Shown: piece by piece, positions 8,896-39,376 of the stretch | Layout of the letters: every line of letters starts with the position of its first letter | Position numbering within the stretch: position 1 is the first letter of the stretch | Assembly: GCA_035289125.1 (NCBI GenBank) | Contig: DATDXW010000039.1 | Coordinates: 1-42,801 of the forward strand | Length of the DNA: 42,801 nt | Reading direction: 5' to 3' | DNA from: an archaeon | GTDB taxonomy: Archaea; Aenigmatarchaeota; Aenigmatarchaeia; GW2011-AR5 | Notes under the pieces: generated by a model | The model's database searches: none | What the model saw: the letters and a program-made list of their open reading frames with translations, nothing else | Told to the model about the DNA's origin: nothing | Program-made: the position numbers and the translations under genes

Positions 8896-8909
8896 TGAAT
8901 CACCATGAT

Positions 8910-9280
8910 GGAGGCGCGCCCTCGGTAGACAGCCCGCGAACAGCAGGTTTGTCCTCCGCGATTGCTCGGTCCGGCGAACCCGCGAGCACCCCGTGTACGG
9001 GTTACGGTTGCTGCCTTCCAGCCCTGGCCGGTTTGCCGCGCAGGAATCCCGCAGGACCGGGCGTCTTCGCTCCTGCGAAGGGCCCACTATCCGCGTGCCG
9101 CCGTCCTCAGGCTTCGGCCCCGGCTGAAGCGGTTTGCCGTTTATGAACCGTGCATGGCATTACATGGCGGAATCTACGATTCCGCCCGTACAGGTGGAGC
9201 TTTGCTCCACCATGTATATGGCACTGCTTCCTGTGCATCGGTTTGTCATAGGTGCCCGCTAAACACCCGGCCTAGCCTCC
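8910..9280 (-). ncRNA. ffs: Signal recognition particle RNA (7S/SRP RNA)
   Basis: GC-rich, highly self-complementary stretch. The minus strand starts GGAGGCTAGGCCGGG and ends GCGCCTCC, so the termini pair. An internal CCAGGGCTGGAAGGCAGCAACCGTAACCC matches the conserved helix-8 pattern (GGAA tetraloop plus AGCA). Ends are approximate. Confidence 0.8.
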
Positions 9281-9329
9281 AAGAATTATTCGGAAGGAAT
9301 GTACTTAAACGGGAAAAATCGGTTCTGTC

Positions 9330-22343: not shown

Positions 22344-22402
22344 TATATAATAATGGCATTTAGATATTTATAATCAATCATGCCATTCAAAGAAACAAAT
22401 AA

Positions 22403-22532
22403 TGCGAGGGGCAGGATTTGAACCTGCGAAGGCACTAAGCCACTAGGTATCTCCGAACACCGTCTGAGCCTAGTCCCATTGGTCGGACAGGTCGCCTAAG
22501 CCTAGTCCCATTGGCCGCTAGGGGACCCTCGC
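22403..22532 (-). tRNA. tRNA-Leu (type II) with about 46 nt of intron-like insertion and an internal 16-nt duplication; anticodon TAG, or CAG from the duplicated copy
   Basis: Minus strand: GCGAGGG..CCC-D loop-GGG, anticodon stem CTAGG/CCTAG, long variable arm TGGCTTAGTGCCTTC, T arm GCAGG-TTCAAAT-CCTGC, acceptor CCCTCGC, discriminator A. CCAATGGGACTAGGCT occurs twice. Confidence 0.75.
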
Positions 22533-23129
22533 TTCTGCGACTATATTCTTGGGGAAGACATTAAAAGCCTTTTCACTGCTGCCGCTTATTCTCTCCACGA
22601 TGAGCCCGTTTTCCCGCAAAAAGCTAGTCAACTCTTTTTTGTCGTAAAGATAGTAGTATCGCATGTGCTTCGCGCCGCCGTGATTCCACGGCACGACCGC
22701 TTCCCTTTCCGCTTTCTCAAAGCGCGGCTGTTCCCTGTTCCACACTGTAACGAGAATGCGCGCGCCGTTGCGCGCGGCGCGCGCGCACTCGCGCATGCAT
22801 TCGCTCCGTTTTTTCATCGTATGAAGCGAATTAACGAGCAGTATTTTTTCAAAAATGCGCGGCTTGAACGGCAGCGCCGCGGCATCGGCGCGGACGAGCA
22901 GCGCTTTTGCATTTTTCTTTTTCGCCTCGCCCCGCGCCGCTATGAGCATATTTCTGGAAAAATCCACGCCGACAAACGTTTTCCCTGCAACGAAATTCCT
23001 GCCCGAGCCGCAGCCAACGTCCAGAATAACGTCGCCGTCCTTGACAAATTCTTCAGCCTCCGGCAGTGCCCGCGTCCTGTACTGCGCCCACGACGGCGCT
23101 ATGCGTTCCCAGACTTCGCGCTGGTCCAT
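22518..23129 (-). CDS. Class I SAM-dependent methyltransferase
   Basis: 203 aa with SAM motif ILDVGCGSGRN. Its last 15 nt overlap the 5' end of the tRNA-Leu gene on the same strand. Confidence 0.8.
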   Translation of the reverse strand: MDQREVWERIAPSWAQYRTRALPEAEEFVKDGDVILDVGCGSGRNFVAGKTFVGVDFSRNMLIAARGEAKKKNAKALLVRADAAALPFKPRIFEKILLVNSLHTMKKRSECMRECARAARNGARILVTVWNREQPRFEKAEREAVVPWNHGGAKHMRYYYLYDKKELTSFLRENGLIVERISGSSEKAFNVFPKNIVAEARVP

Positions 23130-23900: not shown

Positions 23901-23988
23901 TGCTCCCGGCGGGATTTGAACCCGCGTCACAAGCTTGAGAAGCTCGTATCCTTTCGACTTATGATGGGCCGGGCTAGACGACAGGAGC
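23901..23988 (-). tRNA. tRNA-Glu (CTC) with about 13 extra nt in the D-loop region
   Basis: Acceptor GCTCCTG/CGGGAGC. Anticodon arm CGAGC-TTCTCAA-GCTTG. T arm GCGGG-TTCAAAT-CCCGC. Discriminator A. 88 nt, versus a typical length of about 75. Confidence 0.8.
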
Positions 23989-25505: not shown

Positions 25506-25624
25506 CGGACCCGACGGGATTCGAACCCGCGACTTCTTTGGACCAAACGTTGGTCCGAAGCTTCGCTTTTTTCGCTTTACATGGCGAAAAATCAAGCGCT
25601 CTATCCAAGCTGAGCTACGGGCCC
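25506..25624 (-). tRNA. tRNA gene with about 44 nt of inserted sequence (two hairpins); anticodon not resolved by eye
   Basis: Minus strand: GGGCCCG-TA-GCTC-AGCTTGGATA-GAGC ... AAGTC-GCGGG-TTCGAAT-CCCGT-CGGGTCC-G. The middle holds TTTTTCGC-CATGTAAA-GCGAAAAA and GGACCAA-CGT-TTGGTCC. The Lys/Arg-like body and G discriminator are suggestive only. Confidence 0.7.
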
Positions 25625-39240: not shown

Positions 39241-39376
39241 TGGGTCCGGGGAGATTTGAACTCCCGTCTGAGCCTCGTTCGCAGCCGGGTTTTCTTTTGA
39301 ACCCAAGGGCCTTTTCTTTTGAAAAAGAAAAGGGGCTTCCCGAAGGCCCGATCCTACCAAGCTAGACTACAGACCC
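39241..39376 (-). tRNA. tRNA with about 60 nt of extra sequence; probable tRNA-Pro (CGG)
   Basis: Minus strand: GGGTCTG-TA-GTCT-AGCTTGGTA-GGAT-C-GGGCC-TTCGGGA-..., T arm GGGAG-TTCAAAT-CTCCC, acceptor CGGACCC, discriminator A. The insert has two TTCAAAAGAAAA repeats and the hairpin CCTTTTCTTTT-TC-AAAAGAAAAGG. Confidence 0.65.

Follow-up and report, generated by a model that had tools for sequence, protein, structure and literature searches.

A single tRNA gene of a groundwater Aenigmatarchaeota archaeon appears, on balance, to encode both tRNA-Leu(UAG) and tRNA-Leu(CAG), with two mutually exclusive cassettes that are probably chosen by alternative bulge-helix-bulge (BHB) folds. The gene is located at 22403-22532 on the minus strand of the 42,801-nt stretch of DNA that was analysed (the window), is 130 nt long and carries UAG and CAG anticodon arms ahead of a single 3' half. 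The evidence consists of an internal repeat, two complete cloverleaves, the conservation of both cassettes in relatives and BHB complementarity.

On the minus strand, the gene reads GCGAGGGTCCCCTAGCGG[CCAATGGGACTAGGCT]TAGGCGACCTGTCCGA[CCAATGGGACTAGGCT]CAGACGGTGTTCGGAGATACCTAG..., exactly as laid out in an earlier note on this DNA. That note also described a perfectly duplicated 16-mer with a 32-nt period, and the repeat search returned the same core coordinates (22467-22482 and 22499-22514) within two longer direct repeat copies, 22461-22485 and 22493-22517, which are 25 nt long, 22/25 (88%) identical and spaced by 32 nt. By our own estimate, the chance expectation of an exact 16-nt repeat within 130 nt is ~2e-6. 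The first two intron bases (CG) fall inside the 25-nt repeat, which argues that the duplication arose from an intron-containing template. The ARAGORN program, with introns allowed, identified a tRNA-Leu(tag) with a 46-nt intron at 37/38 and coordinates of exactly 22403-22532. The UAG construct spliced by hand is folded by ARAGORN as an 84-nt class II tRNA-Leu with a variable arm and A73, and the CAG construct, made by removing 32 nt and a 14-nt intron, also folds as an 84-nt class II tRNA-Leu, so that two alternative anticodon arms for one 3' half are indeed present, as had been proposed. The two 84-nt products differ solely at position 34 (U or C) and position 37 (G or A), and in both forms the intron lies between positions 37 and 38 (46 nt for UAG and 14 nt for CAG). 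The long variable arm, the discriminator A73, the Leu anticodon and the gene end ...CCCTCGCA are those of a class II tRNA-Leu. A single copy of CCTAG is able to serve as the 3' anticodon-stem strand; the earlier statement that only one copy exists needs the qualification that CCTAG is present a second time in the D arm, at gene positions 11-15. The features of the gene are as follows.

22403-22532, minus strand: whole tRNA-Leu gene, 130 nt, with no encoded CCA, A73 and a long variable arm (ARAGORN with introns).
22511-22532, minus strand: common 5' exon, gene positions 1-22, with the acceptor 5' strand, the D-stem 5' strand and the D loop to A21, present in both constructs; the 22/23 junction at its end is predicted from the BHB register.
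22495-22510, minus strand: cassette 1, gene positions 23-38, UGGGACUAGGCUUAGG, with the D-stem 3' strand, the anticodon-stem 5' strand and the loop CU-UAG-G with G37.
22479-22494, minus strand: linker, gene positions 39-54, CGACCUGUCCGACCAA, predicted by the BHB register scan to be intronic in both pathways; it holds three elements of the proposed cassette-skipping BHB, namely UCC (46-48) for helix B, GACC (49-52) as one strand of the central helix, and the bulged AA.
22463-22478, minus strand: cassette 2, gene positions 55-70, UGGGACUAGGCUCAGA, an arm like that of cassette 1 except for its loop, CU-CAG-A, with anticodon CAG and A37.
22449-22462, minus strand: short intron, gene positions 71-84, CGGUGUUCGGAGAU, 14 nt; its last six bases, GGAGAU, are the putative shared 3' splice strand, with the central-helix GAG and the A-U of the 3' bulge.
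22403-22448, minus strand: shared 3' exon, gene positions 85-130, with A38, CCUAG, the variable arm, the T arm and the acceptor 3' strand.
22513-22516, minus strand: D-loop GGCC, gene positions 17-20, the proposed central-helix 5' strand of the cassette-skipping BHB; its partner is gene positions 49-52 (window 22481-22484), and the predicted 5' cut follows A22 (window 22511).
22560-22566, minus strand: TTTTAAT, situated 28-34 nt upstream of the gene and a possible archaeal TATA box, judged from the sequence and from the upstream regions of relatives; it lies inside the 3' end of the methyltransferase ORF.
22388-22402, minus strand: T-rich tract TTATTTGTTTCTTTG, immediately 3' of the discriminator base and probably a terminator.

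Neither a C box (RUGAUGA) nor a D box (CUGA) occurs in the intron sequence CGACCTGTCCGACCAATGGGACTAGGCTCAGACGGTGTTCGGAGAT, which gives no intron-encoded C/D-box sRNA of the type seen in euryarchaeal tRNA-Trp introns. C/D-box motifs are present in Leu(UAA) and Leu(CAA) introns on other contigs. The window has a G+C content of 49.5% and also carries an archaeal SRP RNA and four further tRNA genes, three of which have introns or insertions. The 30/31 intron in a tRNA-Arg of this genome forms a clean BHB, with a 4/4 central helix and a helix B of 6 bp, a point in favor of the two-isoacceptor reading; the tRNA-Glu of the window has a 14-nt D-loop insertion in which a clean BHB was looked for and none was found. 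The tRNA-Pro(CGG) gene at 39241-39376, with a UGG-like element in its 63-nt intron, was considered as a second dual gene and rejected; it has no cassette-skipping BHB, and the element is part of a recurrent CCCTTTTC...GAAAAGG intron hairpin which is present in many introns.

Relatives of the gene were collected by a search of a genome collection with the methyltransferase family (A1) and by a metagenome scan with a pattern for the tRNA-Leu 3' half, ACCTWGTSGSTTAGTSCSTTCG; since the pattern covers the 3' half only, the metagenome scan was blind to the 5' part. In most of the Aenigmatarchaeota matches, the tRNA-Leu gene is just downstream of the methyltransferase. The gene of L010 (methyltransferase 78% identical) differs from that of the window in three places: A50 is G, gene position 54 (in the 16-mer of copy 2) has gone from A to G, and there is one change in intron 2. 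A 135-nt version is found in L011-L014 and L017 (methyltransferase ~52% identical), and a related version in L215-L217 (methyltransferase ~51% identical), whose contigs stop within the gene. In the alignment of window-type genes (A3), the exons vary in two respects only: G16 is replaced by U, and one acceptor pair has changed from A4:U to G:C in a compensatory manner. Cassette 1 is invariant in this alignment, and cassette 2 (UGGGACUAGGCUCAGA) shows 0 changes over 16 nt in the window, L010, L011, L014 and L217. The linker has four changes, at gene positions 39, 42 (a deletion), 50 and 54, and intron 2 is almost wholly rewritten, with 14 nt in the window gene vs 20-21 nt in L011 and L217.

These comparisons bear on the reading that the earlier note had considered simplest, a tRNA-Leu(UAG) whose 46-nt intron carries a pseudo-5'-half with CAG. 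In the form weighed here, the gene would be a normal tRNA-Leu(UAG) with a single long canonical intron, and the CAG copy would be left over from an internal tandem duplication, never serve as an anticodon arm and be kept structurally or by gene conversion with copy 1. We regard this as unlikely, although ARAGORN, given the intact gene, calls only the UAG form with its 46-nt intron. A redundant copy that is decaying should change at the neutral rate, and cassette 2 does not; it is invariant in four diverged window-type genes. Where the flanking proteins are only about half identical, DNA free of constraint would be expected to be randomised, and the CAG copy is unchanged there; it thus evolves like an exon and not like filler. 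Decayed intermediates are nearly absent. Extra copies of the tandem unit do occur, for example GTTTAGGCGAA upstream in L024, so the region duplicates easily, as the leftover reading would have it. Gene conversion, however, would wipe out the U34/C34 and G37/A37 differences, which are kept in all lineages.

The reading with two isoacceptors depends on the splice motifs of the gene. In the motif at 37/38, the GAG of GGAGAU pairs with CUU or CUC, giving 3/4 central pairs with either cassette (A35·G79 is the mismatch), with bulges GG/C or GA/C and AU/A (slashes within sequences mark the cuts), a helix A of 5 bp and a helix B of 2 bp; the motif is relaxed. A BHB-like fold with either copy, with an A-U/A bulge and a 3-nt bulge at 37/38, had been described before and was found again here. 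The same GGAGA(A/U) strand is present in L129, L179, L202 and L209. The first intron bases are the same after both cassettes (C-G in the window, U-G-A-C in L011) and have the same helix-B strand as partner, which is why the repeat runs beyond position 37.

The 32-nt deletion that gives the CAG form can be placed in 17 equivalent registers. The best consistent register, p=22, has predicted cuts at 22/23 and 54/55. Its central helix pairs GGCC (17-20) with GGCC, 4/4, in L010 and L011 and with GACC, 3/4, in the window (C19·A50), there are AA/U bulges on both strands, and helix B is GGG:UCC (3 bp). Helix A is weak, being essentially the D stem with an internal-loop offset. With 17 registers available, we put the probability that one of them would equal p=22 by chance at roughly 2%, which is modest support alone, and compared with its relatives the window gene carries the weakest skipping motif. 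The register is further supported for several reasons. First, its 3' strand, GGCCAA followed by the cut, is the same as the one before the cassettes in genes of the 30/31 design with CUAG-type bodies (GGCCAA/G). Secondly, L104 and L213, which have the window architecture, show the compatible changes GGUCAA/A and GGCUAA/A. Third, the change at position 54 in L010 would be intronic; as the last base of the predicted 22/23-54/55 intron, it would be harmless to the mature tRNA. Register p=20 (CGG:CCG 3/4, helix B 5 bp) is plausible and was set aside because the A-to-G change of L010 would enter the mature D loop as G21, and register p=33 (palindromic CUAG:CUAG 4/4) was set aside because it has no flanking helices. 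The earlier note had made alternative splicing depend on a BHB fold that removes the first copy. A candidate for this fold is the D-loop motif with cuts at 22/23 and 54/55, which in the window carries the C·A mismatch; the mismatch and the relaxed form of the skipping motif fit the leftover reading as well.

In the proposed mechanism, one transcript would adopt two mutually exclusive folds, and the archaeal tRNA-splicing endonuclease and ligase would yield a different isoacceptor from each. In fold U, cassette 1 would occupy the D stem and the anticodon stem, and the relaxed 37/38 BHB would be cut at 38/39 and 84/85, which would remove 46 nt including cassette 2 and give tRNA-Leu(UAG). In fold C, the D-loop GGCC (17-20) would pair with GACC (49-52) and GGG (24-26) with UCC (46-48), and cuts in the two AA/U bulges (22/23 and 54/55) would remove 32 nt including cassette 1. 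Cassette 2 would then pair with CCUAG, and cuts at 70/71 and 84/85 would remove the 14-nt intron and give tRNA-Leu(CAG). Because the 5'-exon strand and the CCUAG/GAG strand pair with one selector each, each transcript would give either the UAG or the CAG form. The two predicted mature species, ...GGCUUAGGACC... and ...GGCUCAGAACC..., would have identical bodies. We infer from the DNA that the cell makes both sets of cuts and puts both products to use. Constrained folding gave -48.3 kcal/mol for fold U and -45.0 kcal/mol for fold C of the window gene, and -57.5 and -53.3 kcal/mol, respectively, for L011, so that the two folds are within 3-4 kcal/mol of one another. In the unconstrained minimum free energy (MFE) fold of the window gene, the variable arm is mispaired with copy 2 (z = -1.5), which is uninformative.

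The combined set of relatives comprised 127 distinct contexts, of which 116 were long enough for classification. Dual genes made up 61/116 contexts, a count of phylogenetically related sequences and not of independent events, and the anticodon pair was UAG plus CAG in every one, with no other pair. The UAG cassette came first in 57 dual genes and the CAG cassette in 4 (L110/L178, L138 and L164). The other contexts were 15 UAG genes without a 37/38 intron, about 9 UAG genes whose 37/38 intron is plain and lacks a CAG element, 7 standalone tRNA-Leu(CAG) genes and, for the remainder of the 116, Leu(UAA/CAA/AAG) genes; L032 and L044 are among the loci with a single-cassette UAG gene. The plain 37/38 introns indicate that a CAG element is unnecessary for splicing the UAG form, which argues against structural retention of a leftover copy. 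The persistence of the UAG and CAG pair in 61 distinct genes and the reversed order in four of them also count against the leftover reading. A search for dual cassettes in other amino-acid families (215 sequences, loci plus window, 1.7 Mb) returned chance matches only. No standalone tRNA-Leu(CAG) was found in 493 kb of flanking loci, a weak test because it covers flanks only.

In the commoner design of the dual genes, the cassette is a 7-nt micro-exon corresponding to positions 31-37, and the layout is ...GGCGCAAG / (intron 1) GCGAA / GCUUAGG / linker ...GCGAA / GCUCAGA / intron 2 ...UGAGAA / ACCUUG.... The bodies of dual genes have CAAGG or CUAGG anticodon stems, either being possible. The design of L104 and L213 is that of the window, with the D-stem 3' strand also within the cassette. 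Thus far, the sequences point to at least two junction designs, in the D loop and at 30/31, with a cassette order that is sometimes reversed. A low-GC (32%) group with the commoner design is also nearest to Aenigmatarchaeota, as judged by deoxyhypusine synthase, and from the sequences compared the dual arrangement looks phylum-wide in Aenigmatarchaeota. Because the dual genes were chosen with a pattern, it is in part a matter of selection that cassette positions 31, 35 and 36 do not vary in the large set. Most of the standalone, intronless tRNA-Leu(CAG) genes have a CTCAGA loop (L160 has TTCAGG), so that A37 in the CAG cassette is normal and not a sign of decay. Three dual genes have C33 in the CAG cassette, which suggests a loss of function in some lineages and counts in favor of an inert copy there.

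The cassette-skipping motif was then scored strictly in 55 dual genes, as a 4-bp central helix and two 3-nt bulges cut after the second base, with flanking helices A and B, for the intron that starts after G30 of the 5' exon and ends immediately ahead of the second cassette. The central helix was 4/4 in 44/55 genes, 40/55 also had a helix A of at least 2 bp, and 36/55 had in addition a helix B of at least 2 bp; all three strict criteria hold for 0.065% of arbitrary site pairs in the same sequences. The pairing differs with the body type: CGCA:UGCG, CGCU:GGCG or GGCU:GGCC/GGCU/GGUC. In the alignment of the two strands (A2), 95% of cells were paired vs 24-42% with the partner slid by 1-3 columns, and there were 13 double-sided changes in two pairs; the observed values were reached by 0/500 shuffles. 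The first cassette is fused to the exon in L015, L018, L023, L101, L136 and L140, and thus the 3' strand before the second cassette has no other conceivable use in these genes. The covarying BHB with the 5' exon is found even in such genes (L015, L018, L023 and L136), which an inert CAG copy would not explain. The shared 3' strand, for its part, divides the dual genes. As UGAG, it pairs with both CUUA and CUCA, and the central helix of the second cassette is 4/4 in 23 genes. As UAAG, it fits UAG perfectly but mismatches CAG at C34·A, and the helix of the second cassette is 3/4 in 30/55 genes, as might be expected of a leftover copy. In L215-217, it is GAAG, which is weaker still for the second BHB of the CAG pathway. 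Mismatches in the competing helices (C·A and G·U) may set the ratio of the isoacceptors. Taken with the comparisons above, the production of two isoacceptors by alternative splicing, which the earlier note had held as its second choice, becomes the better-supported reading, with the splicing itself deduced from the DNA.

Another alternative, which we consider improbable, is that the gene makes tRNA-Leu(CAG) only, by removal of two introns, with the UAG copy in a non-canonical D-loop intron that is always discarded. A good tRNA-Leu(CAG) does result after removal of 32 nt and 14 nt, and the unconstrained MFE fold of L011 is of the fold-C type, containing the GGCC:GGCC helix and the anticodon stem of copy 2. 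In addition, of the Leu codons in 16 long ORFs of the window, CUG is used most often (170) and CUA least often (28), and the CAG isoacceptor is therefore in demand. The fold of L011 and the codon counts also speak for the dual reading. In many relatives, the skipping BHB is also better than the including one, the strict criteria being satisfied by the skipping intron in 36/55 genes vs 7/43 for the intron that retains the first cassette. However, conservation of the UAG loop (GCTTAGG in 48/52 genes) is no less strict than that of the CAG loop, more than half of the genes have a shared 3' strand matched to UAG (UAAG), and the canonical 37/38 BHB of the UAG form is 4/4 in 51/55 genes.

That the gene is a pseudogene, or an artefact of a repeat collapsed or joined chimerically in the assembly, is hardly credible: the gene was undetected by Rfam (at the gathering threshold and also at E up to 10) and by default ARAGORN, yet the identical 130 nt are found on 8 contigs from independent metagenome assemblies of several projects, which excludes an assembly artefact, the arrangement is kept across species with compensatory exon changes, both products are intact cloverleaves, and there is a TATA-like box upstream and a T-tract downstream. 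The adjoining methyltransferase (22518-23129, minus strand) likewise has 100% identical copies on contigs of several groundwater or aquifer metagenome projects, and the nearest named genomes are Candidatus Aenigmatarchaeota MAGs (DPANN).

If the choice between two cassettes is confirmed, it would be the first case of cis alternative splicing by the archaeal tRNA-splicing endonuclease. A full-text literature search, which covered few subscription journals and so is no proof of novelty, found no account of an archaeal pre-tRNA that is alternatively spliced in cis. The introns of tRNAs are usually taken as constitutive, with one gene for one tRNA, whereas here the swap of a 7-16-nt cassette would alter decoding. 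Part of the 'missing tRNA' problem in DPANN genomes would also be explained. Standard tools either overlook such a gene, which happened here with Rfam and default ARAGORN, or assign it only one anticodon; the inferred codon-reading capacity of these genomes would then be wrong and their annotation affected. In addition, the gene would provide models of tRNA gene evolution with a cis intermediate between intron-containing, split and tri-split tRNAs, and it would serve as a simple, testable system for the control of an isoacceptor ratio by competing RNA helices.

Several known systems resemble the proposed dual gene in part. Genes for tRNAs with multiple introns and with non-canonical BHB or relaxed HBh' introns occur in Thermoproteales, ARMAN and other DPANN (PMC4033280, PMC5829648), and DPANN endonucleases with an L3 loop are reported to accompany more disrupted tRNA genes (PMC5829648). 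The introns of such genes are found in the D loop, at 30/31 and at 37/38, and their relaxed motifs are processed by broad-specificity endonucleases; the introns proposed for the dual genes would be similar. However, in multiple-intron tRNAs the introns are constitutive and one gene gives one tRNA, whereas the intron sets proposed here overlap and are mutually exclusive, so that the 'intron' of one pathway would hold the anticodon exon of the other.

In Dscam, mutually exclusive exons of a eukaryotic pre-mRNA are chosen by competing RNA pairings. The proposed mechanism is similar in that one docking strand (here the 5'-exon strand, and likewise the CCUAG/GAG strand) and several selector strands, with one pairing at a time, would give exactly one cassette. 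Dscam is processed by the spliceosome; here, a protein endonuclease that reads BHB motifs would act on 7-16-nt cassettes in a tRNA.

The tRNA-Glu(UUC) and tRNA-Glu(CUC) of Nanoarchaeum equitans are reportedly isoacceptors that share one 3' half, a finding attributed to Randau and colleagues in 2005. As proposed for the gene described here, these isoacceptors differ at position 34, use a single 3' half and belong to a DPANN archaeon, the N. equitans genome being reduced. The N. equitans halves are trans-spliced, encoded far apart and have complete and separate 5' halves, whereas the window gene has tandem cassettes within an intron. The case of a shared 3' half among the split tRNAs of N. equitans is introduced in a review (PMC4033280).

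The tri-split tRNA-Gly of Caldivirga maquilingensis (Fujishima et al. 2009), whose anticodon pieces are swapped 'like a jigsaw puzzle' in the words of the same review (PMC4033280), offers the closing comparison. In the tri-split system, anticodon-bearing pieces are swapped onto common tRNA pieces to give synonymous tRNAs, with a BHB endonuclease and a ligase, and the window gene would do likewise. The tri-split pieces come from separate genes at separate loci and are joined in trans through complementary leaders, whereas the window gene is a contiguous 130 nt with one apparent promoter. The choice in the tri-split tRNA is made among separate pieces, and in the window gene it would be made by the alternative folding of a single transcript. 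The window gene has all its parts on a single strand, in 130 nt flanked by one TATA-like box and one T-tract, which is not the arrangement of a split or trans-spliced tRNA. Thus, as a single contiguous gene, it falls outside the split and tri-split class, and it would work alike in cis.

The dual tRNA-Leu gene, in which UAG and CAG anticodon cassettes precede one shared 3' half, is overlapped by 15 nt at its start by the end of the adjoining methyltransferase ORF (window 22518-22566, minus strand), an arrangement that is also present in relatives. Positions 13-15 of the tRNA form the TAG stop codon of the ORF, and the TATA-like box of the tRNA gene, TTTTAAT, lies inside the conserved C-terminal ...KAFN... 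codons of the methyltransferase.

A contig of 1943 nt (L130, OBEQ013056904.1) carries separate tRNA-Leu(UAG) and tRNA-Leu(CAG) genes in tandem, spaced by about 11 nt, and the 34 nt of 3' half that can be compared between the two genes are identical. This tandem pair is plausibly the evolutionary precursor of the fused dual gene, or a derivative of it. In four related loci (L024, L025, L117 and L139) a third copy of the unit (GTTTAGGCGAA) is located immediately upstream of GCTTAGGCGAA-GCTCAGA, and thus the 11-nt unit is tandemly triplicated there. The third copy has no bulge-helix-bulge (BHB) strand in front of it and is apparently not in use.

Other tRNA-Leu genes were also observed on the metagenome contigs. 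Eight DPANN-like contigs (L098, L108, L161, L172, L193, L201, L210 and L212) carry tRNA-Leu(UAA) or tRNA-Leu(CAA) genes with introns at 37/38, which contain the C/D-box-like motifs CTGA and (A)TGATGA and may encode guide RNAs. Three tRNA-Leu-like genes (L116, L144 and L195) have the anticodon loop (C/T)T-AAG-G, which gives the anticodon AAG. A34 is unusual in archaeal tRNA-Leu.

The archaeal origin of the window is confirmed by its SRP RNA, which is listed here with three further tRNA genes.

8908-9282, minus strand: archaeal SRP RNA (Rfam RF01857, 101.8 bits)
23901-23988, minus strand: tRNA-Glu(CUC), wrongly called as Leu(aag) by ARAGORN
25506-25624, minus strand: tRNA-Arg(UCG), wrongly called as Leu(aag) by ARAGORN
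39241-39376, minus strand: tRNA-Pro(CGG), 63-nt canonical intron, central helix 4/4 (all four pairs formed)

The D loop of tRNA-Glu(CUC) contains an insertion of about 14 nt (CCCATCATAAGTCGA) relative to the intronless ortholog in L015; a clean BHB was sought for this insertion and none was found. The inserted segment is similar to a D-loop/stem of euryarchaeal type (CCGGCCCATCAT). A 31-nt intron interrupts tRNA-Arg(UCG) at position 30/31, and the BHB of this intron is of textbook form: the central helix CGCU:AGCG is 4/4, helix B has 6 bp and the 3' strand reads AGCGAA|G. The 3' side of the anticodon stem of tRNA-Arg(UCG) has an extra insertion (CCAAAG vs CCAAG), possibly an intron near 42/43.

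Within the tRNA-Pro(CGG) intron, the element AGGCC-CT-TGG-G looks like an anticodon arm for UGG. No BHB whose excision would skip to this element exists in that intron, and the element was instead assigned to a recurrent intron hairpin family. The module, (G)CCCTTTTC(T/C)...GAAAAGG(G), recurs in this intron and in L021, L024, L026, L028, L030, L032, L046, L218 and others. The introns that carry this CCCTTTTC...GAAAAGG hairpin belong to several tRNAs (Leu, Glu and Pro) and interrupt them at several sites (D loop, 30/31, 37/38 and T loop), which suggests an intron family that is mobile or has been copied repeatedly, comparable to the one described in Thermoproteales.
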